Source: Chryseobacterium gleum
GTDB taxonomy: Bacteria > Bacteroidota > Bacteroidia > Flavobacteriales_D > Sanyastnellaceae
DNA length: 33,084 bases
NCBI GenBank assembly: GCA_943372555.1
Contig: CALRZB010000001.1
Coordinates: 1 to 33,084 of the forward strand
Direction of reading: 5' to 3'
The notes beneath the pieces are model-generated. The model was not told where the DNA came from, did no database searches, and saw only the letters and a program-made list of their open reading frames with translations. A program made the translations under genes and the position numbers. Positions 1,062 through 27,405 of the stretch are shown piece after piece (the first letter of the stretch is position 1; every line of letters begins with the position of its first letter).

Positions 1062-3707
1062 CTACTCCTTTTCCTGAAGCCATTTCGGTAATTTCTTTCC
1101 TTTTGTCGTCTCTTTCGAATTGTCTTGACCCTTTGGAGTCTCGGGCTGAGAAAGCTTTGGTTTAGGCTTCTCCTCTTGTTCCACAGGTGCCGCAGGATCA
1201 TTCTCCTCCCACTGAATTGTAGTAGTAGACTCTTGAACTGCAGGTTTCTCTTGGTAGGCACCAATAGTATTATCATTCTTAAATAGCCCGAATTCTTGTT
1301 TCAACAAGGCTTTCATATTTTGCTTTTCAGCAGCTATTTCCTCTTTTCTGATTTCCTTCGAAGCCTCCTTATCTATGCCGAATTCTGGCTTATCTGTTGT
1401 ACCGCGCATGTAGATGTAAAGCAATTTGCCCAACCCATCGTCTTGCTCTTGCCAATCTTGTGACTTCTTCACCAGAATATCGCGAAGTCTAAAACCAATG
1501 GTATAATCAATCACGTTATCGAATGTGTGCGTTCCAGAAGCAGAAATATCAAGCGCAGAAGACCGAATATCCATAAGAGGAATGTTGATCTTTCTGTCTT
1601 TGATCTCAATAATGTTTTCCAAATTAGAAAACTTGATATCCTTCATTCGCTCGGCAAACTTATCCTCATCCACAAATGGGGCTATAAGTTTGTTGCTCTT
1701 CAAATACTGCGCAATCTCTTGCAAAGATTCAAGACCAATCAACTGACCATTGGCAATACTGATGTCTATGATACTGTAAATATTATCTGTCTGAATGCGC
1801 AATTCCTTGCTCACTGGGGCTTTGAACTCAATGGATGCCGTGGCCTTACCGCGAAGATTTTGATCTGTAATAAACGTTTGACCGAAATTATCAAATTGAT
1901 AAAACATCTTCTGAATATTGATCTGATCAAACTTAGCAAAACAGGTTAAACCAAAACTATTGTCCGCTCGCTGAGCCAATTCTATCTGTGATAAAAATCC
2001 TCCTTCCGAAGTGTTAAACGAAACTGGGTCAATCCTGAACACTTGATTTTGTAATATCGCAACACCTGTAACATCAGTGGCTTCAAACTTCCCGAACATG
2101 AATTTTTTCACCTTCGTTTGAAGAGAGAAGTCTATAAATTCAGGTAGACTAAAGCTGTAATCACGATTGGAGTTGGTGCTCTCTTCTGTTTCCACAAGCT
2201 GTGTAAAGTCAATCAAATTAGAATTCAAAGTCGCTTCAACATTCAATCTTTCACTTCCACCAGCGATAAACGGAATCAAGTTTCGCAACGCCCCATTGAT
2301 AATAAAATCACTACCATTCACCTTGCCGTGCAGTCGTTGAACAACGGCATCTTTATTACTAAAAACTACTGTGGTAGCAAGATCCGTAAAGTCACGATTG
2401 GAGTTCTTTAGTTTCAATCGAGCTTGTGTGATTTCGCCTTTCCCATTCATATCGACAGAACCCAGAGGACCTTTAAAATCAGCCTGTGCATAGACACGAC
2501 CTTCGCAAACTTCGAGTGTATCCCAATTGAAAAACTTACTCAACTCGCTCATGCCTACATCCAATTTCAAATGCAAATCGGTATACGGGTTGTCCAAATG
2601 ATCGATTGTTCCATTCGCTTCTATCACGCCTCCTTCTAAAGATGCGCTGAACTTATCTAACTTCAATTGATCGTTTGAAGTTCCACGCAAATAGCTACCA
2701 TCAAATGTTATGGATGACAACGACACTCCCGTTTCATTGTGTTTCAAATTGCCTTCTTGAATAGAAAAATTGGCTTTGATATCAGGAGTCTTGCCTTCTC
2801 CTGCCAAGCCTTTCAGCGTGGCGTTGAACGACACTGTGCCGTCGGCATCGTAAACAGAAAGTTGGTCTCTATTCTCTCGCGGGAGTTTTGAAATGACATC
2901 AGACAAAGTCAAATTATCTCCTTCTATTCGAAGATCCATGTACGTCTGTTCGCTCACCGCTAAACTTCCGCCAAGAATGAAAGGCAGTTCATCAATAGAA
3001 ATCTTACATTCATTGATTGAGTACTTTCCCTCTTTGGTTTGCGCGTCAATCAAGGTTTCCAAGTCCACCTTTCTATTCGCAGCATATTCTGTTGAACCGC
3101 TTATCAGACTATTCACTTGGGCCTCCATATCGAGCTCAAGTTCAAATTGTTCAGACTCAAAACTGCCGCCTGCCTCGCTCTTGCTTGTTACCAAATCAAT
3201 GAAGAATTCTGATGATCGATCTTCGTAAACGATGTTGGCATTTTCAATTTCAATATTCTCTAAAGCCATTTTGAAACGGCTAGTATCGGATTCTTCTTCT
3301 TTTAGAAAGTGCCAGTTGTCCTCGCCTTTCTTATTCACCTTCATATAAGCTTTTGCTTCTTCCGCGCTGATTTTTTTGATGTCATAATTCCCCGAGAAAA
3401 CATCCATCAAGTCGAAGGACAGATATACCTTTTGGGAAAAAAACAGCGTGTCTTTTTCAGGAAATGTTTCTTGGATATAGACATCGGTGAATCGAATTGA
3501 GGCTTTTGGAAAGGTGTCCCAAAAGGTTAAATCCGCAGAACCGACGTTGGCTTTGGTTTTCAAACGATCGTTTAGCTTCGTTAAAGCATAACCTACTACA
3601 TCATCTTCATAGTAGCGTATAATTACGAAACCCGCGCCAATCAACAAGATTAGCACGATCAATAGGCCCAAAGCCACCCTTTTCGTTATGCGCCAGAACT
3701 TCTCCAT
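1062..3707 (-). CDS. AsmA-family-like large envelope protein with an N-terminal membrane anchor and a charged low-complexity C-terminal tail
   Basis: 881-aa ORF with an ATG at 3707. It has one N-terminal TM helix (VALGLLIVLILLIGAGFVII), then a long beta-rich body, then the tail KPKPKLSQPETPKGQDNSKETTKGKK. It ends 16 bp upstream of the rsmF-like ATG on the same strand. The family call rests on architecture, not on a diagnostic motif. Confidence 0.55.
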   Translation of the reverse strand: MEKFWRITKRVALGLLIVLILLIGAGFVIIRYYEDDVVGYALTKLNDRLKTKANVGSADLTFWDTFPKASIRFTDVYIQETFPEKDTLFFSQKVYLSFDLMDVFSGNYDIKKISAEEAKAYMKVNKKGEDNWHFLKEEESDTSRFKMALENIEIENANIVYEDRSSEFFIDLVTSKSEAGGSFESEQFELELDMEAQVNSLISGSTEYAANRKVDLETLIDAQTKEGKYSINECKISIDELPFILGGSLAVSEQTYMDLRIEGDNLTLSDVISKLPRENRDQLSVYDADGTVSFNATLKGLAGEGKTPDIKANFSIQEGNLKHNETGVSLSSITFDGSYLRGTSNDQLKLDKFSASLEGGVIEANGTIDHLDNPYTDLHLKLDVGMSELSKFFNWDTLEVCEGRVYAQADFKGPLGSVDMNGKGEITQARLKLKNSNRDFTDLATTVVFSNKDAVVQRLHGKVNGSDFIINGALRNLIPFIAGGSERLNVEATLNSNLIDFTQLVETEESTNSNRDYSFSLPEFIDFSLQTKVKKFMFGKFEATDVTGVAILQNQVFRIDPVSFNTSEGGFLSQIELAQRADNSFGLTCFAKFDQINIQKMFYQFDNFGQTFITDQNLRGKATASIEFKAPVSKELRIQTDNIYSIIDISIANGQLIGLESLQEIAQYLKSNKLIAPFVDEDKFAERMKDIKFSNLENIIEIKDRKINIPLMDIRSSALDISASGTHTFDNVIDYTIGFRLRDILVKKSQDWQEQDDGLGKLLYIYMRGTTDKPEFGIDKEASKEIRKEEIAAEKQNMKALLKQEFGLFKNDNTIGAYQEKPAVQESTTTIQWEENDPAAPVEQEEKPKPKLSQPETPKGQDNSKETTKGKKLPKWLQEKE

Positions 3708-8734: not shown

Positions 8735-9277
8735 CTACTGCGGTTTCCAAGGAATTTCTTCTGCGTTGAATTCAACAGTAAGTTTTCTAGAAAGTACAAA
8801 AAGATAATCCGACAATCGGTTCAAATAATGCATGATTAAGTCATCCACTTTTTCATGATCATTAAGTGCAGCTACGCAACGTTCCGCTCTACGGCAGATG
8901 GTGCGTGCGATGTGACAATGCGATACAACCACATTTCCTCCAGGAAGAATAAAATTACGCATCGGTTCGAGCGACTCATCCATTGTATCCATGGCAGTTT
9001 CTAGAGCAGTAACATCCGCTTCATGAATTTCCGGAAGTTTCATTTTTCCTTCATGCGAAGGGTCCACTGCAAGATGGCTGCCTAGGGTGAATAATCTATC
9101 TTGAATGAAAAGAAGAATGTCTTTGTGGGCTGGCGCAAGGTCGCGAAGAAGACCGAGGTAAGAGTTGAGTTCATCAACAGTACCATATGCCTCAATTCGC
9201 AAGTGATGCTTTGGAACGCGCGTACCGCCGAGTAATCCCGTTGTTCCGTCGTCGCCTTTCTTTGTGTAAATTTTCAT
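8735..9277 (-). CDS. ATP:cob(I)alamin adenosyltransferase, PduO type
   Basis: MKIYTKKGDDGTTGLLGGTRVPK is the canonical PduO-type N-terminus, and SDYLFVLSR lies near the C-terminus. I prefer the ATG at 9277 over the extended track start at 9307. Confidence 0.9.
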   Translation of the reverse strand: MKIYTKKGDDGTTGLLGGTRVPKHHLRIEAYGTVDELNSYLGLLRDLAPAHKDILLFIQDRLFTLGSHLAVDPSHEGKMKLPEIHEADVTALETAMDTMDESLEPMRNFILPGGNVVVSHCHIARTICRRAERCVAALNDHEKVDDLIMHYLNRLSDYLFVLSRKLTVEFNAEEIPWKPQ

Positions 9278-9367
9278 AAGCTCATTCTTTTCGAGTGCAA
9301 GATGCACAAGTTTTAGCGAAACAAAATCAAATTACGGTGAACACCGCGGGTAAATGCTCAATCAAAC

Positions 9368-9472
9368 CGACGACTAGTGACCAACGACTAGTGACTAGTG
9401 ACTAACGACTGGTGACTGGTGACCAACGACTAGTGACTAGTGACCGACGACCAGTGACCAATGATTAATTAC
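9368..9472. repeat. Tandem heptamer array, 15 units, consensus YRRYGAC (TAGTGAC / CAACGAC), with a 21-bp higher-order period
   Basis: It reads cgacgac tagtgac caacgac tagtgac tagtgac taacgac tggtgac tggtgac caacgac tagtgac tagtgac cgacgac cagtgac caatgat taattac. One -ACGAC unit is followed by two -GTGAC units, repeatedly. Confidence 0.95.
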
Positions 9473-9590
9473 TGAGGGAAGTTCTTTTAAATAAAATATT
9501 TCTCTCTGTGTAACTCTTTTATTCTCCTAAATCTCTGTGGCTAGAAAATGGGAAAATGAGAAAGAGAGGAAATGAGAAAGTGTAGAATCA

Positions 9591-9614
9591 CACCAACTAT
9601 CAAACTACCAAACT
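9591..9614. repeat. Short degenerate octamer array (caccaact atcaaact accaaact), the counterpart of the long ACCCCACT array in the inverted module
   Basis: It contains AACTATCAAACTACC (9595..9609), whose exact reverse complement occurs at 11514..11528. Confidence 0.7.
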
Positions 9615-9754
9615 AACTCACGAACCTCCTTCAATTCCTCTGAATAAATAGTAATTCGATCGCCAATCTCCAAAGGAAACGGACTCCAATCCTGCTGCCC
9701 AATAGACACATTCGACAACACAAGAAAACAAAACGATAAGAAAAGGTGTTTCAT
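9605..9754 (-). CDS. small ORF (49 aa) with an N-terminal signal peptide; either a secreted peptide or a gene remnant
   Basis: It is below the ORF-track length cut-off. The minus strand gives MKHLFLSFCFLVLSNVSIGQQDWSPFPLEIGDRITIYSEELKEVRELVW*. A perfect -7 box TATCTTTG lies 4 nt upstream of its ATG. The stop codon lies inside the degenerate octamer array. Confidence 0.35.
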   Translation of the reverse strand: MKHLFLSFCFLVLSNVSIGQQDWSPFPLEIGDRITIYSEELKEVRELVW

Positions 9755-9758
9755 GAAT

Positions 9759-9766
9759 CAAAGATA
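9759..9766 (-). promoter_or_regulatory. Bacteroidota -7 box TATCTTTG, 4 nt upstream of the small-ORF ATG
   Basis: The minus strand reads TATCTTTG-ATTC-ATG. Confidence 0.45.
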
Positions 9767-9768
9767 AC

Positions 9769-9810
9769 TACTGGTTACTGGATACTGGTTACTGGATACT
9801 AGTTACCCCA
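9769..9810. repeat. Tandem heptamer array TACTGGW, 6 units (14-bp alternation of tactggt and tactgga)
   Basis: It reads tactggt tactgga tactggt tactgga tactagt tacccca. It resembles the reverse orientation of the GTCACTG-type heptamers. Confidence 0.9.
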
Positions 9811-9858
9811 CGAACTCCCGACCCCTCGACCCCTCGACCCCACGACCCCTCGAACTTA
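9811..9858. repeat. Tandem octamer array CGACCCCT, 6 units (C4 tracts on the plus strand, G4 tracts on the minus strand)
   Basis: It reads cgaactcc cgacccct cgacccct cgacccca cgacccct cgaactta. It directly abuts the heptamer array on one side and the redoxin -7 box on the other. Confidence 0.9.
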
Positions 9859-9859
9859 C

Positions 9860-9867
9860 TATATTTG
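9860..9867 (+). promoter_or_regulatory. Bacteroidota -7 box TATATTTG upstream of the redoxin gene
   Basis: Exact TAnnTTTG match, 17 nt upstream of the ATG at 9885. Confidence 0.45.
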
Positions 9868-9884
9868 ACAAAATAAACGACAAC

Positions 9885-10523
9885 ATGAAAAAAGCACTCT
9901 ACATCTTCGGTGTGTTGGCAATTGGAATTGCTGCATACTCCTTTACTGTTGCTGATCCTGAAACATTGGCTATTGGTGCTGCTGCGCCTAAGACTGATCT
10001 TAAAATGGACGGTATCGATGGAAAATCAGTTTCACTTACCGACTTGAAAAAAGCAAACGGTCTTGCCGTTATTTTCTCAAGCAACACTTGTCCATTCGTT
10101 GTAGGCGCTGAAGGCTACGGCGAAGGCTGGGAAACACGTTATCTTGGTTTGCAAAAAGCAGCTGGAACATACAACGTTGGACTCGTTCTTATCAATAGCA
10201 ACGAAGCAAAACGTGCGAGTGGTGAAAGCATGGAAGACATGAAAAAAAGAGCTACAGAAAAGCGTTTCTCTAACGTGGCTTACCTACTTGACAAAAACTC
10301 TGAACTAGCAAACGCTTTCGGAGCGCGCACTACACCTCACGTATTCTTGTTTGATAAAGACATGAAATTAGTTTACCGTGGTGCTATCGACAACAACAAT
10401 GAAAGCGCTGCAAAAGTGACTGACTCATACCTGGAAAAAGCAATGATTAATCTTTCTCAAGGAAAAGCCATTAATCCAGCTGAAACTAAAGCAACAGGTT
10501 GCGGAATTAAGCGAGTTGGCTAA
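9885..10523 (+). CDS. secreted thioredoxin-fold (redoxin/AhpC-TSA-like) protein
   Basis: 212 aa. The signal peptide is MKKALYIFGVLAIGIAAYSF. The thioredoxin-fold pattern is VIFSSNTCPFV...ARTTPHVFLFDKDMKLVYRGAIDNN...GCGIK. Only one Cys is present at the usual CxxC position. Confidence 0.75.
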   Translation: MKKALYIFGVLAIGIAAYSFTVADPETLAIGAAAPKTDLKMDGIDGKSVSLTDLKKANGLAVIFSSNTCPFVVGAEGYGEGWETRYLGLQKAAGTYNVGLVLINSNEAKRASGESMEDMKKRATEKRFSNVAYLLDKNSELANAFGARTTPHVFLFDKDMKLVYRGAIDNNNESAAKVTDSYLEKAMINLSQGKAINPAETKATGCGIKRVG

Positions 10524-10531
10524 TCTGGGAC

Positions 10532-10539
10532 TATTTTTG
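10532..10539 (+). promoter_or_regulatory. Bacteroidota -7 box TATTTTTG, 4 nt upstream of the truB ATG
   Basis: The plus strand reads TATTTTTG-CCCC-ATG (ATG at 10544). Confidence 0.5.
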
Positions 10540-10543
10540 CCCC

Positions 10544-11281
10544 ATGATTCCTGTACCTAATTCTTTTGAATCGATAGAAGACATCCTCCAAGGAAGTGTT
10601 ATTATAGTTGACAAACCCCTTGAATGGACCAGTTTCGACGTTGTCGGAAGGTTGAAGTGGTTGATTCGCAGATATGGCAAAGCGCCCAAATTCAAAATTG
10701 GTCACGCAGGAACTCTAGATCCCTTAGCTAGCGGTCTTTTGGTAGTTTGCACCGGCAAATGCACCAAACAAATTCAAGACATACAAGGTGGAATGAAAGA
10801 GTACACAGGCACTATTCGCCTGGGACAAACAACACCGAGTTATGATCTAGAAACCGCACCAGAAGGCGATTTCCCTTACGAACATTATACAGAAGCCGAG
10901 CTCCTTGGAGTTGCGGCTTCTTTTATTGGTGAGCAATTGCAAACGCCTCCCATTTACTCTGCAAAACTCATCGATGGCAAACGCGCCTACGAATCTGCAC
11001 GTGCAGGAGTAGAAGTAGTAATGCGTCAGGCGCTTATTACGATCCATGAATTCGAGTTGACTCGCATTGCGCTCCCAGACATCGATTTCAAAATTCGATG
11101 CAGCAAAGGCACCTACATTCGGTCCATTGCACATGACTTCGGACAAAAACTAGGCGGCGGTTCGCACCTTGTGGCCTTACGCAGAACAGAATCAGCCCCA
11201 TTCCGCATCGAGAATGCATACGCTATGCAAGACCTCGAAGAAAAAATTCGCTCAATTTCTCCCTCAAAATCAGAGGATTAG
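10544..11281 (+). CDS. truB: tRNA pseudouridine(55) synthase
   Basis: It contains the catalytic Asp motif KIGHAGTLDPLASGLLVVCTG, plus YSAKLIDGKRAYE and GTYIRSIAHDFG. Confidence 0.93.
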   Translation: MIPVPNSFESIEDILQGSVIIVDKPLEWTSFDVVGRLKWLIRRYGKAPKFKIGHAGTLDPLASGLLVVCTGKCTKQIQDIQGGMKEYTGTIRLGQTTPSYDLETAPEGDFPYEHYTEAELLGVAASFIGEQLQTPPIYSAKLIDGKRAYESARAGVEVVMRQALITIHEFELTRIALPDIDFKIRCSKGTYIRSIAHDFGQKLGGGSHLVALRRTESAPFRIENAYAMQDLEEKIRSISPSKSED

Positions 11282-11386
11282 AAAAAACTTTTTTGAGAAC
11301 GTAACCTTAGGCCTTACAAACACCGTTAAAGACCCTGTAAGTTCTCATGTAGAGATATTAGATAGTTTAATTGTTTTCATTTATTA

Positions 11387-11418
11387 CCAAAAGGCCGCTC
11401 AACGGAGTGGCCTTTTGG
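11387..11418. terminator. Strong hairpin (14-bp stem with one G-U pair, 4-nt loop) with A4/T4 arms; candidate bidirectional intrinsic terminator downstream of truB
   Basis: It reads ccaaaaggccgctc-aacg-gagtggccttttgg. The T-run forms part of the 3' arm. Confidence 0.6.
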
Positions 11419-11423
11419 TATTG

Positions 11424-11527
11424 GGGGTAGTGGGGTAGTGGGGTAGTGGGGTAGTGAGGTAGTGGGGTAGTGAGGTAGTGGGGTCGTGGGGTAGTGGGGT
11501 AGTGGGGTAGTGGGGTAGTTTGATAGT
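11424..11527. repeat. Tandem octamer array GGGGTAGT, 12 units plus 1 degenerate unit
   Basis: ggggtagt x4, gaggtagt, ggggtagt, gaggtagt, ggggtcgt, ggggtagt x4, ttgatagt. This array generates the spurious PTTPLPHY ORFs in the track. Confidence 0.95.
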
Positions 11528-11532
11528 TAAAA

Positions 11533-11572
11533 CAAATGAACACAAGTGAACACAAATGCACCCAAATGAAAA
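11533..11572. repeat. Four tandem decamers CAARTGMAMM
   Basis: It reads caaatgaaca caagtgaaca caaatgcacc caaatgaaaa. Confidence 0.8.
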
Positions 11573-11578
11573 GAATCC

Positions 11579-11669
11579 GTCGTAGCTCACTAGTCACTGG
11601 TCGTTGGTCACTGGTCACTGGTAGTCGGTCGTCAGTCACTAGTCACCAGTCACCGGTCGTTAGTCCTTG
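11579..11669. repeat. Tandem heptamer array GTCRYYR, 13 units; the reverse complement of the 9368..9472 array type
   Basis: It reads gtcgtag ctcacta gtcactg gtcgttg gtcactg gtcactg gtagtcg gtcgtca gtcacta gtcacca gtcaccg gtcgtta gtccttg. Confidence 0.95.
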
Positions 11670-11736
11670 ACATTCGCTTTTAGATGTTGTACCTTCGCCC
11701 CCCAATTTTCTAAATCATAATACATTGATTTCAACC

Positions 11737-12789
11737 ATGAAGCTGGGTCAGTTTCGTTACAAACTGCCACCCGAACTAATTGCCCAGTACCCTGCAAAGC
11801 ATCGCGATGAGTCCCGCCTTATGGTGGTTCACAAGAGCACAGGTAAGATCGAGCACCGTATGTTCAAAGACATTCTCGATTACTTCGACGAAGGCGACGT
11901 AATGGTAAACAACAACACTCGCGTTTTCCCTGCTCGTATGTACGGCAACAAAGAGAAAACTGGTTCGATGATCGAAGTATTTATGCTCCGCGAATTGAAT
12001 GCTCAAAGCTTGCTTTGGGATACTGTTGTTGATCCAGCTCGTAAAATCCGTATCGGTAATAAACTTTACTTCGGTAAAAACGACGAACTCGTTGCCGAAG
12101 TCATCGACAATACTACTTCAAGAGGCCGCACATTGCGCTTCTTATTTGATGGTACACACGATGAGTTCAAAAAATTGATCTACGAACTAGGCGAAACTCC
12201 GCTTCCGAAGTACATCACTCGTCCTGTTGAACCTGAAGATGAATTCCGCTATCAGACAATCTACGCTAAGCACGAAGGTGCTGTAGCTGCGCCTACTGCT
12301 GGTCTTCACTTCAGTCGTGAGCTCTCAAAACGCCTTGAAATCAAGGGTATCAACATGGCAGAACTTACACTTCACATCGGACTCGGAACATTCCGCACCG
12401 TAGAAGTAGAAGATCTTACTAAGCACAAAACAGACAGCGAACAACTTATCATCCCTGCAGAAACTGCGGATATGGTAAACGAAGCGAAAGCAAATGGTCG
12501 TCGTGTATGTGCAGTTGGAACTACCGTTGTACGCGCCTTTGAAAGCAGTGTGAGCACAAATAATTTGCTTAAGCCATTCGACGGATGGAGCAGCAAATTC
12601 ATTTTCCCTCCATACGATTTTCAAATTGCAGATAGCTTGATCACGAATTTCCACGAACCAGAAAGTGTCTTGTTAATGACCACTACTGCTTTTGGAGGAT
12701 ATGATCTTGTGATGCAAGCATACCAAGAAGCTATCAAAGAAAAGTATCGTTTCTTCTGCTACGGAGATGCGTTGCTTATCTTGACCTAA
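11737..12789 (+). CDS. queA: S-adenosylmethionine:tRNA ribosyltransferase-isomerase
   Basis: [30 protein letters not shown] is the QueA N-terminus. Also present are AAPTAGLHF and [15 protein letters not shown] prefer the ATG at 11737 over the track's TTG at 11725. Confidence 0.93.
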
Positions 12790-13230: not shown

Positions 13231-15192
13231 TCAGCCCACATTCCGTAATAAAATCTCCCCTTTACCCTCTAACCTTTCCCCTATACAATCTCCCCTCTCC
13301 CCTTTACCCTCTACCCTATGCACAAACCCCTTGTGGTCTATGTACCCGCACCAACCTGTTACCAACCAACCATCATTGAATATTCGCTTTCCACCCTCAA
13401 TATTTTGATCCAATACTGCTGGTCCTTTTATTAATATCTCTCCCACTTCTCCACTTGGTAACTCAACCGAATAATCATTCGGTTTGCAAATCTTCACCGC
13501 CACACCTGGCAATGGCTTACCAATCGAATCGGCATCGCTAGCCTCCTGAAACAGCGGACGACCAACAATATCACTGGAATTGATGTTGAGCAAATTCACA
13601 GCAAACACTGACGACGATTCATTCAACCCAGCGCATGTCAACACTGATATACCTCTATTATTCAACGATTGTACTGTGGCATTCAACGGATGAATATCTG
13701 CTGTGAATATGTGTGTCAACTCTGCAATATTTCTCTTCTCCGCCAACGCGCTCACCGCTGTCAACTGCCCCGGACTCGCTATCACCAACTGGTGTGAACT
13801 ACCTGTCAAAGTGTTCGCAAACTGCTCGTCAGTCGCGCCGTTTGGAAGCATCTCTACCGAAAAGTCTGACATCAAGGGAAGCAAAAACTCTAACACAAAA
13901 CCAAAAGAATTATGCATCTCTAAATCACACAACATCGAACTTCCTTTATCAAAATGATACACCTGACGCAAACCAATAATCACCGCATTGATCTGCTGCT
14001 GATATACAGGAATCGCTCTTACCAACTCTCTTTTTTCTTTTTCAAAAAATAATGCAACTGGCAACTCGGCCTTCACTGAAGTGAACAATGACATCACTCG
14101 CTTGCGCGCCACTTTCAAATTCTTGCAAATCACATTCACAGGAACTCCTTTCTCCATCGACGCTTCCAACTCATCGATAAACACCACGGCATTCTCTGTC
14201 GGTGCCCAATGACTAAAATTGATGTCTTTCGTAGTAATCAATAACCCCGCATTCGAGCGATTGATCGCAAACAAACGCTGTTCGTTCGTCCAATTCGGAT
14301 CGATTGGAACAGTGGTTTTCTTATTCATCAATAACCACAAATAAATCAACATCGACTGTGGGCCTTTTGGCAATAAAACAGCCACTGTAGTTTCTTTCTC
14401 CAACGATTTTCCAAGGGCAGCGCCGAGCTTCGACAATTGCTCTGGCAAATTAGAATACGCATGTTTCTTTCCTTCATATTTCCAAAAACCAACAGGCTCA
14501 TTGCTCAACACGCGACCAATGCGATTGCTAATCGTTGGCTGATCCATCAAACGTTTCGAGAAATTCTCTACTTCCAATTCTTTGATGCATTGACGCAATG
14601 CAAATGCACTCACTCCACCTTTAATCGGCACACCCACGTTGATTCTCACTTTTCTGCGAAGCGTAGAAAAAGAAAAACGCAACATGTGCTTGCGACCAGC
14701 GCGATATGAAAACGGAGTTCCAGAAACATTATCAAAATGAATAGGAACAACTGGTCCGGTAATAAGCTTTGAAAGATGCTCAACACCTTTTTTAAACTCC
14801 AAAATTTGTCCTGTTCTAGAAACAGTGCCCTCAGCGAAGATGGCTACCAAGTATCCAGCATTCACTTGTTCCGAAACAGCTTTATTAAATAACTCGAAAT
14901 CGTTCTTGCCTGTGCGAGGAGAAATAGGAACGCAATTGAGCGCTTTCAATAAAGGACGTAGAAAAGGCTTTTTGTAGATATCGGCATTCATCACAAAACT
15001 CACCGGACGGGAATTAAGACATACCATCAATACGAAGTCCATGTAGCTAGTGTGATTGCCCACCAATAGCGCTCCTCCCTCTGAAGGGATGTTCGAAGCA
15101 CCAGTGATGCGAAGTCGATAGATGACTCTTCCTAGAAGTTTTACAAACGTTCTAAGGAATGCGGCTAGTAGGGTGATCATTATTGTTTTCAT
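13231..15192 (-). CDS. Aas-like fusion: an N-terminal lysophospholipid/1-acylglycerol-3-phosphate acyltransferase (PlsC family) joined to a degenerate, C-terminally truncated ANL (acyl-AMP-forming) domain
   Basis: The HX4D motif is GNHTSYMDF and a second acyltransferase block is FAEGTVSRTG. The C-terminal half shows ANL-like blocks GEVGEILIKGP and GWLVTGWCGYIDHKGF but no P-loop. I prefer the ATG at 15192 (MKTIMITLL...) over the TTG at 15225. The last ~25 codons lie in a repeat array. Confidence 0.75.
   Translation of the reverse strand: MKTIMITLLAAFLRTFVKLLGRVIYRLRITGASNIPSEGGALLVGNHTSYMDFVLMVCLNSRPVSFVMNADIYKKPFLRPLLKALNCVPISPRTGKNDFELFNKAVSEQVNAGYLVAIFAEGTVSRTGQILEFKKGVEHLSKLITGPVVPIHFDNVSGTPFSYRAGRKHMLRFSFSTLRRKVRINVGVPIKGGVSAFALRQCIKELEVENFSKRLMDQPTISNRIGRVLSNEPVGFWKYEGKKHAYSNLPEQLSKLGAALGKSLEKETTVAVLLPKGPQSMLIYLWLLMNKKTTVPIDPNWTNEQRLFAINRSNAGLLITTKDINFSHWAPTENAVVFIDELEASMEKGVPVNVICKNLKVARKRVMSLFTSVKAELPVALFFEKEKRELVRAIPVYQQQINAVIIGLRQVYHFDKGSSMLCDLEMHNSFGFVLEFLLPLMSDFSVEMLPNGATDEQFANTLTGSSHQLVIASPGQLTAVSALAEKRNIAELTHIFTADIHPLNATVQSLNNRGISVLTCAGLNESSSVFAVNLLNINSSDIVGRPLFQEASDADSIGKPLPGVAVKICKPNDYSVELPSGEVGEILIKGPAVLDQNIEGGKRIFNDGWLVTGWCGYIDHKGFVHRVEGKGERGDCIGERLEGKGEILLRNVG
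13255..13313. repeat. C-tract-rich array containing an exact 17-bp direct repeat CTCCCCTTTACCCTCTA (13255..13271 and 13297..13313), 42 bp apart
   Basis: Read directly from the sequence. The minus strand is G-tract rich (ggg/gggg every ~8 nt). It encodes the duplicated EGKGE in the tail of the Aas-like ORF. Confidence 0.85.
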
Positions 15193-15343
15193 GGAGCAAA
15201 TAACATTCACGCCTTCTCGCTCCAAAAGTCTTCTTTCAAAATAAACGTAGTTTTACTTTTTCCTTAAAATATCCCATAAATACTGTAATAAATATCTTTT
15301 CTTCCTATATTCATCTTTCAAAACGTAGTTTAAAAAGCACTAA

Positions 15344-26387: not shown

Positions 26388-27354
26388 ACATATTATCATC
26401 TCACGCACAGATAGCATAGGCGACGTCATGCTAACGCTGCCTATTTGCGGCGTGCTCAAAAAACATTTTCCCGAAATAAAAATCACATTTCTCGGAAGAT
26501 CCTATACCGAAGCCATTATCAAATCATGTAGTCACGTTGATCAATTCATCAACTGGGACAACCTTTCCAAGGAGAATGATGAAACACAAATTGCACAATT
26601 CAAAGCAATTGGTGCCGATACAATCATTCATGTTTTCCCAGATAAAGAAGTAGTTAGCCTTGCAAAAAATTCTAGAATACCCAATAGAATCGCCACTGGT
26701 AGAAGATGGCATACATTGATGAATTGCAATCACCCTGTTTTTTTCTCAAGAAAAAACTCGGACTTGCATGAGTCTCAACTCAATATCAAATTACTTCAAC
26801 CACTTGGCATAACTGACATTCCTACACTTGCTGAAATGCCTAATCTATATGGCTTTCATGCGAATGGAACTGTTCCAGAAAAACTTCTTTCTATTCTAAA
26901 TAATGGAAAGAAAAATATCATTCTCCATCCATTATCCAAAGGAAGTGCTGTCAATTGGAGCATGAGTAAATTTCAAGAGCTCGCTGCACTATTAGAAGAA
27001 AATAACTTCAATGTTTTCGTCAGCGGCACACAAGCAGAAGGTGATAAAATCAGGACGTTATTTTCATTTGAAAAAGAGAATGTTCATGATATCACAGGCA
27101 TGCTCAACCTCAATGAATTCATCGCATTCATCAGTCACTGCGATGCGTTAGTTGCGGCAAGCACCGGACCTCTGCACATCGCATCAGCATTAGGTTTGAA
27201 AGCAATAGGCCTCTACTCCCCAAAGCGCCCTATACATCCTGGACGTTGGGCACCCATCGGCAAAAACGCCCAATACCTAGTAGCTCCCTCTCATCCCGAA
27301 CAAGGTGAGTTGGAGATTTCGGCGAAGGAAGTGCGCAGAGCGCTAGAAGTGTGA
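26374..27354 (+). CDS. glycosyltransferase family 9 (LPS heptosyltransferase-like)
   Basis: The N-terminal IIISRTDSIGDVMLTLP and the C-terminal ALVAASTGPLHIASALG are GT9 hallmarks. I prefer the GTG at 26374 (a 14-bp overlap with the GT2 gene) over the track start at 26311 (a 77-bp overlap). The exact start is uncertain. Confidence 0.8.
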   Translation: MKVSKHIIISRTDSIGDVMLTLPICGVLKKHFPEIKITFLGRSYTEAIIKSCSHVDQFINWDNLSKENDETQIAQFKAIGADTIIHVFPDKEVVSLAKNSRIPNRIATGRRWHTLMNCNHPVFFSRKNSDLHESQLNIKLLQPLGITDIPTLAEMPNLYGFHANGTVPEKLLSILNNGKKNIILHPLSKGSAVNWSMSKFQELAALLEENNFNVFVSGTQAEGDKIRTLFSFEKENVHDITGMLNLNEFIAFISHCDALVAASTGPLHIASALGLKAIGLYSPKRPIHPGRWAPIGKNAQYLVAPSHPEQGELEISAKEVRRALEV

Positions 27355-27405
27355 AGTATGAAGTGTGAGGTTTGATGTAAAAGTTAACGACTGGTGACAA
27401 GTGAC
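27348..27405. repeat. Heptamer-phased array (agtgtga agtatga agtgtga ggtttga ...) ending in one 21-bp unit TAACGAC-TGGTGAC-AAGTGAC of the 9368-type repeat
   Basis: Read directly from the sequence. The first unit contains the GT9 stop codon (27352..27354). TAACGACTGGTGAC is identical to part of the 9368..9472 array. Confidence 0.8.

Follow-up and report, generated by a model that had tools for sequence, protein, structure and literature searches.

Stacked heptamer, decamer and octamer arrays around the redoxin–truB gene pair of a Flavobacteriales bacterium: probable slippage-driven repeats with a polar order

Analysis of a 33-kb stretch of DNA from an uncultured freshwater Flavobacteriales bacterium, referred to here as the window, revealed two modules of stacked short tandem repeats, L and R, in the spacers that bracket the redoxin and truB genes. 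These modules are probably slippage-driven long simple-sequence repeats (LSSRs), akin to the short tandemly repeated repetitive (STRR) heptamers of cyanobacteria, making up recombination-prone spacer DNA with a lineage-specific polar grammar. Arrays of the LSSR/STRR type are known; what is new is this polar variant in Flavobacteriales, in which units of 7, 10 and 8 nt follow one another (7/10/8).

A search with Tandem Repeats Finder (TRF) located five short-period tandem arrays between 9.3 and 13.3 kb and, elsewhere in the 33 kb, only a three-copy heptamer run at 27346–27368. The array scores of 139 (period 21) and 171 (period 8) are far above chance. The arrays all lie between called genes, except that at 13248–13319, which forms the 3′ tail of one open reading frame (ORF). 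Their components are as follows.

9365–9476, plus strand: heptamers of module L, GAC-Y-R-(GT or AC), 13 perfect units and two to three degenerate end units (TRF period 21, score 139)
9477–9594, plus strand: middle of module L, a non-repetitive AT-rich stretch and degenerate GAAAATGR octamers at 9543–9582 (sequence, TRF)
9595–9626, plus strand: octamers of module L, AACTAYCA type, AACTATCA AACTACCA AACTAACT CACGAACC, holding a 15-nt match to module R
9769–9806, plus strand: third, compact module, TACTGGW heptamers, 5.4 copies (TRF), the heptamer end facing the start of a 49-codon ORF
9805–9853, plus strand: octamers of the third module, six ACCCCNCG, with a minus-strand G-quadruplex motif, 32 nt before the redoxin ATG
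11424–11528, minus strand: octamers of module R, 12 GGGGTAGT (as read on the plus strand) and a degenerate TTGATAGTT (TRF score 171)
11529–11578, minus strand: decamer block of module R, four TTCAYTTGKG (minus strand), the diagnostic cassette core (TRF period 10, 3.9 copies)
11575–11665, minus strand: heptamers of module R, GACYRRY (minus strand), 10 perfect and two to three degenerate units
13248–13319, plus strand: fourth site, TCTACCC-type heptamers (TRF), with a G-quadruplex motif on the minus strand; absent from the sister contigs L001 and L143

Modules L and R were found where the preliminary description of this DNA had placed them. The perfect and degenerate GACYRRY heptamers of module L have a higher-order period of 21 nt and are directly followed by GGGAAGTTCTTTT, and the octamers AACTATCA AACTACCA AACTAACT span 9595–9618; the GAAAATGR octamers in between are of a type that is the reverse of an array of 16 CCCATTTC in contig L137. 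Read on the minus strand, module R consists of heptamers, which abut the conserved region upstream of queA, a 50-nt spacer opening GGATTCTTTT, and then AACTATCA followed by 12 octamers of the ACTACCCC type (11424–11528). The third module (9769–9853) and the heptamers at 13248–13319 had been missed. The octamers of the third module are the inverted partner of those of module R, with 76% identity over 58 nt, and a better partner than the octamers of module L.

The exact 15-nt inverted match between 9595–9609 and 11514–11528 is present, although the claim that it would not be expected by chance in 33 kb does not hold, as the expectation, N^2/2/4^15, is about 0.5 and an unrelated second match of this length occurs at 3037/25307. 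Because about 0.5 such matches are expected, only its position at the junction is informative. The junction is made of two units of the AACTAYCA family and recurs three times in L126 and once in L137. The near-equal module lengths (247 and 246 nt) prove to be a coincidence, module R being some 60 nt shorter in strain L001. Both modules had also been described as having the same layout around their spacers; the order of elements is indeed shared, but the spacers found in the window are not, measuring 128 and 50 nt and giving an alignment score of 8 against 7.3 ± 1.4 for shuffles. A chance origin was nevertheless rejected, for while the 15-nt match alone is not significant, the arrays and the homology among sister strains are.

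This homology emerged from sister contigs, taken from a compared set labelled L001–L152, in which TruB or PduO is identical or 99% identical to that of the window and the flanking genes are 95–98% identical. The related contigs were drawn from at least six separate metagenome samples. Assembly artefact was ruled out because the structures recur in independent assemblies; the junction sequences, moreover, are unlike any simple chimera of window sequences. In the pduO–redoxin spacer of L003, L139, L140 and L141, heptamers are followed by ATTCTTTT and four to five decamers, by AACTAYCA AACTACC, and then by TATATTTG. The decamer core of these spacers is the reverse complement of the module R spacer of the window. 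Over a 63-nt core running from ATTCTTTT to AAACTACC, module R of the window and the L copy of L003 agree at 60 of 63 positions, and the R copy of L001 equals the L copy of L139 and L126 apart from one extra decamer. Core identity between L and R sites is thus 95–100%, and we therefore conclude that, as judged from sequence, a single composite cassette, comprising a 7-mer array, four to five decamers TTCAYTTGKG and an 8-mer array, is present at L and R in mutually inverted copies. The decamer block has been lost from the L copy of the window strain, which has an extra block of about 300 nt, block X. Four contigs span both spacers, and in these the decamer core is found at L (L140, L141) or at R (window, L001), never at both.

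When metagenomes were scanned with a 20-nt piece of the decamer core, 15 matches were obtained, 10 of them unrelated. The cassette was found, with its elements in the same order, at a further locus, L137 573–773, between the end of a carboxyltransferase gene and the start of the next gene, and decamer–octamer blocks akin to it were found in L127 and L132. Contig L137 also carries GACYRRY heptamers followed by 16 CCCATTTC octamers, as well as a heptamer-only array. Set aside as unrelated were a promoter region of high GC content, three contigs almost identical to one another, two single matches ascribed to chance and a decamer array in L135. The L135 array (872–955) holds 8.4 copies of the decamer ATGAACACAA, the same unit as in the cassette core, and lies just upstream of a small gene whose product, judged by eye, looks like a ribbon-helix-helix (CopG-like) protein (MSKTITVRPSDAILNALNELAAKENRS...); its layout resembles that of an operator or iteron.

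The recurrence of ordered decamer variants with the AACTAYCA junction at three or more loci (L, R and L137, with the related L127 and L132), their cores 69–100% identical, would suit a non-autonomous mobile element, in which the 7/10/8 cassette is copied as a whole by a factor whose gene lies elsewhere. We think this very unlikely. The cassette has neither terminal inverted repeats nor a target-site duplication, its ends are open arrays of variable length, and conversion between arrays with units in common could account for its spread. The statement of the preliminary description that no transposase, integrase or recombinase is present, and that this is no classical mobile element, agrees with our scans, which covered the 29 large ORFs of the window (Pfam) and the two unannotated ORFs of a 5.9-kb insert in related strains (Pfam and NCBIfam); a transposase is absent from the ~33 kb of the window and from ~60 kb of related contigs.

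Both unit numbers and the presence of whole arrays vary between strains of about 96% identity. The heterogeneity in unit number that had been raised as a possibility was found between strains: module R has 12 octamers in the window and six in L001, with about 12 and about 10 heptamers, respectively, and the decamer block has four units (L003, window R) or five (L139, L126). Block X (about 9466–9768) is present in the window, L001 and L126, and not in L003, L139, L140 or L141. The L126 allele is a mosaic of the form 7a, block X, 7b, 8b, 7c, 10x5, 8c. To the left of about 9545, within the degenerate octamer run, the sequence of L001 no longer follows that of the window, and L001 has another neighbouring gene there. 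In L140 and L143, module R is replaced, between the terminator and the queA upstream region, by 5.9 kb of DNA encoding two ORFs without family, a PAS histidine kinase and a response regulator, together with a frameshifted pduO copy (L140 7946–8487; L143 6770–7311) directly upstream of queA. This copy, pduO′, is 90.8% identical to the pduO of the related contig L144 and 68% identical to the resident pduO, values on which its origin in L140 as a recent duplicate of the resident gene was rejected; most simply, these identities suggest recombinational import of pduO′ and the insert from an L144-like lineage, replacing module R. In the spacer between the TM2-domain and acyltransferase genes, the window has TCTACCC heptamers and L001 has (TGATGGA)7 with two extra outer-membrane protein genes, while L143 has neither. 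The two extra genes of L001 (3724–5506) encode outer-membrane beta-barrels and have (TGATGGA)7 on the TM2 side and a 13-nt repeat on the other. The rest of the compared DNA is collinear, so that structural variation is confined to the three array-bearing spacers and affects each of them. Every strain-level structural difference at the locus has an array at its edge.

These observations are best accommodated by a scheme in which arrays colonised a few spacers, downstream of terminators or upstream of promoters, and would grow and shrink through replication slippage. Units shared across spacers would let the arrays act as short patches of homology for deletion, insertion and gene conversion. From an L126-like allele, deletion between the direct heptamer arrays 7a and 7c would give the L003 allele, and deletion between the direct octamer arrays 8b and 8c would give that of the window. 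The decamer core was probably carried, inverted, between spacers 2 kb apart by conversion or template switching between the flanking arrays. Neither a dedicated enzyme nor a cellular function would be required, and the G-quadruplex potential beside terminator and promoter could have a side effect on transcription.

The arrays obey a consistent grammar. Heptamers and octamers that occur together always stand in the order 7, (10), 8 on the GAC strand: three times in the window, in L001, in L003, L139, L140 and L141, three times in L126 and twice in L137. In some 7-to-8 pairs the octamers are others, CCCATTTC x16 in L137 and ACCCCNCG in the window, yet despite four octamer families the octamers are C-rich on the GAC strand. 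The proposal of a lineage-specific intergenic repeat family is thereby upheld, with a preferred order of heptamers, optional decamers and C-rich octamers whenever heptamers and octamers are found together. In five of five modules the heptamer end lies toward the 5′ end of a gene, these being pduO, queA, the 49-codon ORF and two genes of L137. About 104 distinct heptamer units were examined (114 counted, with one L137 array counted twice). Their GAC is 83–97% invariant and positions 4–7 are nearly all binary Y-R-R-Y, that is, they vary almost only by transitions, with GT (44), AC (21) or AT (6), and never GC, at positions 6–7. The heptamer arrays show higher-order periods of 14, 21 and 28 nt. 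This unit pattern is descriptive only, because the units are not independent observations.

A scan for G-quadruplex motifs in the 33 kb gave four motifs only, all in arrays, at 11423–11515 (plus strand), 9806–9849 (minus) and 13292–13316 (minus). Some arrays are therefore predicted from their sequence to be capable of forming G-quadruplexes, with units such as (GGGGTAGT)4 and (AGGGGTCG)4; those of the module R octamers are on the sense strand, right after the terminator. A hairpin folding model gave 0 kcal/mol for the R octamer array, and in single-strand folding the L heptamers alone had a negative z-score (−2.6), the R heptamers scoring +0.1, the R octamers 0 and the decamers +1.6. G-rich heptamers are reported to form G-quadruplexes and to sit on the sense strand after stop codons or antisense within 50 nt upstream of ORFs (PMC4692102). 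The window motifs, with at least four tracts of three or more G and short loops, resemble the GGGNATC and GGGGAYT repeats of Xanthomonas and Nostoc (Rehm 2015, PMC4692102) in these G tracts and in extensive length variation, and follow the same placement rule, 11424–11519 being sense after a terminator and 9805–9853 antisense less than 50 nt before an ORF. They differ in that the units here are octamers with G-quadruplex tracts and 4-nt loops, coupled to non-G heptamers and decamers. They differ too in that raised genomic stability was reported near the earlier repeats, whereas the arrays here mark variable points.

Several points weigh against neutral slippage as a full account. It predicts neither the strict polarity, with its order of 7, 10 and 8 and heptamer ends directed to gene starts in five of five modules, nor the binary unit pattern, in which GAC is invariant and positions 6–7 are GT or AC and never GC. 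The arrays could be scars of repair rather than causes of breakpoints, and slippage, conversion and transcriptional neutrality are all steps that we infer. The decamer core was seen at both L and R in no strain, so that it may have moved rather than been duplicated and then lost. Finally, arrays occupy only three of about 25 window spacers and are thus no uniform property of the genome.

The polarity and the unit pattern, with its invariant GAC core and binary flanking positions, would be easier to understand if the arrays were a functional cis element at which a protein polymerising on heptads or decamers, with (GACTAGT)n and (TTCACTTGTG)4 as candidate binding units, or a G-quadruplex, tunes or insulates transcription of pduO, queA and redoxin. 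Also in line with such an element are the G-rich strand placement, which obeys the Xanthomonas/Nostoc rule, the confinement of all window G-quadruplex motifs to arrays, the position of the L135 TGTGTTCAYT decamers directly upstream of the gene that by eye resembles a ribbon-helix-helix protein, and the finding that deletion of (GACYAAT)8 upstream of Nostoc recO alters the response to LexA and NtcA in reporter assays (preprint 10.1101/2022.06.06.494920). Against this, strains sharing the same genes show twofold changes in unit number and the gain or loss of entire arrays, the orthologous spacers of related species work without arrays, the housekeeping functions of the neighbouring genes are unrelated, no candidate binding protein was found, and neither cited study assigned a function. 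On balance a cis-acting function seems unlikely, but it is our main reason for not rating the finding lower, slippage being unpredictive of polarity and unit pattern.

Of similarly low probability is that the 7/10/8 stack is a polar cassette copied between spacers without a transposase, or the platform of a protein that reads GAC heptads. Transposase-free copying would proceed by array-guided gene conversion or template switching, and the cassette would then be an agent of the breakpoints at the locus. This suggestion is based on the cores, which are identical apart from one unit, and on the occupation of one site or the other in every informative strain.

The arrays are set among the following genes and conserved features of the window.

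8735–9277, minus strand: pduO-type cobalamin adenosyltransferase gene, ‘pduO2’ (Pfam PF01923, E = 7e-62), likely ATG at 9277
9605–9754, minus strand: 49-codon ORF with a signal-peptide-like start, inside block X, no Pfam match
9861–9868, plus strand: candidate promoter box of redoxin, TATATTTG, directly after the arrays and kept in all strains
9885–10523, plus strand: redoxin (Pfam), bracketed with truB by the modules
10544–11281, plus strand: truB (Pfam)
11298–11423, plus strand: conserved non-coding element E, between truB and module R, with a symmetric terminator hairpin (11385–11420) at its end
11666–11737, plus strand: queA upstream region (CTTGAC...TACCTTCG...), conserved in relatives, where it follows the pduO stop codon
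about 11738–12789, plus strand: queA (gene call)
13231–15225, minus strand: acyltransferase/AMP-binding gene (gene call)
L144 9075–9201, L145 5075–5201, L148 5086–5212 and L151 5928–6026, minus strand: element E in relatives (sequence comparison)

The 5′ end of pduO2 faces the heptamer end of module L. This gene has 69% DNA identity to the pduO of L144, and about three-quarters identity in protein as estimated by eye from the translations. The 49-codon ORF may be the remnant of a truncated gene. The box TATATTTG fits the Bacteroidetes −7 promoter box TAnnTTTG and from its sequence is a putative promoter. The exact redoxin of the window has no database record. In L140 an internal deletion (1183–1483) has reduced the redoxin gene to pieces of 59 and 35 codons, so at least one strain can do without redoxin. 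A TM2-domain gene was called near the acyltransferase/AMP-binding gene. The array at 13248–13319 encodes the last 29 codons of the latter ORF (in its end region 13231–13330, minus strand), giving the tail RVEGKGERGDCIGERLEGKGEILLRNVG, where the L001 and L143 proteins end L(A/V)AKEGECKER(K/R)VA; the C-terminus of a protein has thus been rewritten by a simple-sequence array.

Element E, of about 125 nt, carries an A-tract/hairpin/T-tract terminator and is the fixed anchor in all rearrangements compared. Its sequence identity is 89–91%, and about 85 nt do not vary, among species with TruB identities of 64–76%; it is far better kept than the flanking genes and has a fold z-score of −3.9. It belongs to no Rfam family, and is a candidate small RNA gene or conserved leader. 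Its opposite strand contains an 11-codon ORF, MKTIKLSNIST. Rfam searches of the whole window at the gathering threshold and of 9250–11800 by E-value identified no RNA family, giving only sub-threshold matches on the terminator hairpin, and a tRNA/tmRNA scan of the window found none. By its TruB homologues the host is placed among uncultured Flavobacteriales, the nearest named relatives, Crocinitomicaceae and Lishizhenia, being 58–59% identical.

The related species fall into groups by TruB identity to the window: L144–L147 at 76%, L148–L150 at 69% and L151/L152 at 64%. With arrowheads for direction and slashes for the spacers around redoxin and truB, the gene order in all of these relatives is TM2< queA< pduO< / (redoxin>) truB> / <AAK, whereas in the window species it is AAK> <pduO / redoxin> truB> / queA>. 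In the window, therefore, redoxin–truB is reversed relative to AAK and queA, and pduO is on the other side; element E lies between pduO and redoxin/truB in the relatives and after truB, on the queA side, in the window. The order in the relatives is ancestral and that in the window species is derived. The comparison of orthologous intergenic regions that had been suggested shows four related species without these arrays and with pduO, redoxin and truB arranged oppositely. No GACYRRY, decamer or AACTAYCA arrays were found in relatives at the 76%, 69% and 64% levels; L144 and L145 have other heptamers, GATTCTC facing GAGAATC, right after element E, and L148–L152 have none. The array content of the ‘same’ spacer is therefore species-specific. 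In L145 (4967–5056) a loop of 30 nt is enclosed by an inverted pair of heptamer arrays, GATTCTC x4.4 and the reverse complement GAGAATC x4, and in L144 (8740–8985) a palindromic insertion of about 250 nt lies between the GATTCTC and GAGAATC arrays.

The opposite arrangement in these species bears on whether redoxin–truB(–E) is an invertible segment, flipped, as its function or its main consequence, by recombination of the inverted octamer and heptamer arrays. Two nested inverted pairs flank the segment, namely heptamers at 9382–9464 and 11587–11669 (78% complementary over 83 nt) and octamers at 9804–9861 and 11452–11509 (76% over 58 nt), redoxin–truB is opposite relative to the AAK and E/queA anchors in the four related species, and by our reasoning two successive inversions of an L126-like allele would lead to the layout of the window. 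However, none of the relatives with the reversed order has these arrays. Only one orientation occurs in the same-species contigs informative on this point, which are the window, L001, L003, L126, L139, L140, L141 and L143, and L140 and L141, which are without module R, share it. RecA-type recombination usually needs roughly 25 bp, and the exact L/R matches fall below this, the longest being 15 nt and all others 13 nt or less. No recombinase gene was found in the scans of window and insert. Origin of the species difference by a single L–R inversion was rejected, since E and pduO have changed place too and the orientation is no different in strains devoid of R; more than one event is needed because element E stays on the queA side, and pduO must in addition have been relocated. 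The putative promoter travels with the genes, and flipping would therefore not switch their expression. Inversion of the segment, as first proposed, is thus suggestive only, the opposite arrangement in four species speaking for it and the single orientation in about seven same-species contigs against it, and we regard it as distinctly improbable.

We return to the reading of the modules as LSSR/STRR-like arrays, which the comparison with known repeat classes favours. Heptamers are the commonest class of long simple-sequence repeats (SSRs) in prokaryotes, and slippage is the proposed cause (Mrazek 2007, as related in PMC4679880). As far as that account describes them, long SSRs with units of 5–11 nt have in common with the present arrays head-to-tail units of 7–10 nt with heptamers dominant, intergenic location, sporadic taxonomy, variation in unit number between close relatives and proposed slippage; unlike them as so described, several unit families are stacked here in a fixed polar order, and one stack has been copied inverted. 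The present arrays are tandem units of 5–11 nt above chance, polymorphic in unit number and predominantly non-coding.

A scan for (GACYRRY)4GAC in one genome per species gave at least 120 loci (L005–L124). Among the matches listed, more than half are from filamentous cyanobacteria (Microcoleus, Nostoc, Scytonema and others), the remainder including Bacteroidota, Acidobacteriota, Planctomycetota, Gemmatimonadota, Verrucomicrobiota and a Vibrio; many of the arrays lie next to G-rich or inverted arrays, and of the 95 that could be scored 84 are intergenic. No general strand preference was seen across phyla (30 versus 22; among the matches listed and with a crude ORF caller). In co-directional spacers, with the same matches and caller, GAC-sense arrays lie near the downstream start (median 26 nt) and GTC-sense arrays near the upstream stop (median 4 nt). 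The units, among the matches listed, track genome GC content, being GACCGGC in Streptomyces and Gemmatimonadaceae and GACTAAT in cyanobacteria.

The cyanobacterial STRR heptamers and the GACYAAT arrays of Nostoc, Microcoleus and Scytonema belong to the same degenerate heptamer class, GAC-YRRY. They differ in host, since by TruB the nearest named relatives here are Flavobacteriales and not the mostly filamentous cyanobacteria in which STRRs occur, and in their units, which here end mostly in TAGT, TGGT, CAAC and CGGT, not CAAT or TAAT. The STRR unit TTGGTCA, the complement of GACCAAT, accounts for only about 2 of 114 units, whereas the cyanobacterial matches are mostly GACCAAT or GACTAAT. The stack described here also contains octamers and decamers, and in the cyanobacterial arrays a G-rich array precedes GAC on the same strand, the opposite of the polarity in the window.

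Heptamer assemblages have been reported in five Bacteroidetes and are missing in relatives with the same synteny, and a role in rearrangement was suggested (PMC4679880). These TAACTGA and other heptamers, known also from Beggiatoaceae and cyanobacteria (MacGregor 2015, PMC4679880), are likewise intergenic and mixed, are missing in close relatives with the same neighbourhood, and coincide with contig breaks. Their unit sequences are other than those here, where arrays are not immediately before start codons, and neither a 7/10/8 composite order nor an inverted duplicate is described there.

The analogy to repetitive extragenic palindromic (REP) sequences and bacterial interspersed mosaic elements (BIMEs), drawn in the preliminary description, fails because the units are head-to-tail simple-sequence repeats and not palindromic. 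The REP/BIME elements of enterobacteria and pseudomonads are, like these arrays, lineage-specific intergenic repeats that can be composite and can promote rearrangements. Their units, however, are imperfect palindromes of about 35 nt mobilised by REP-associated tyrosine transposases (RAYTs), in place of direct repeats of 7–10 nt; no stem-loop unit of about 20–40 nt was found in the arrays, and no RAYT gene among the window genes. Miniature inverted-repeat transposable elements do not fit open-ended, variable arrays, and the relatives show replaced sequence and not empty sites. An inverton or shufflon is not indicated, there being no invertase or recombinase gene among the ORFs scanned and one orientation in the small sample of about seven same-species contigs. 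The units, being 7–10 nt long, contiguous and without spacers, are not those of a CRISPR (clustered regularly interspaced short palindromic repeat) array.

Tandem arrays of 7–10-nt units are numerous in certain bacterial lineages, and to our knowledge no function has gained acceptance for them since they were described in cyanobacteria. The present locus offers a natural experiment on such arrays, in that several strains and four related species can be aligned, the array grammar is clear, and there is an array at every breakpoint. The arrays account for the breaks found here in metagenome contigs of this organism. If either cassette copying or the GAC-heptad platform should prove true, it would amount to a new class of genome-shuffling element in Flavobacteriales, guided by repeats and independent of recombinases, and might give a mechanistic clue to the STRR arrays of cyanobacteria. 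If the link between arrays and breakpoints is causal, the arrays would be a source of local change in gene order and of allele mosaics in uncultured freshwater bacteria.

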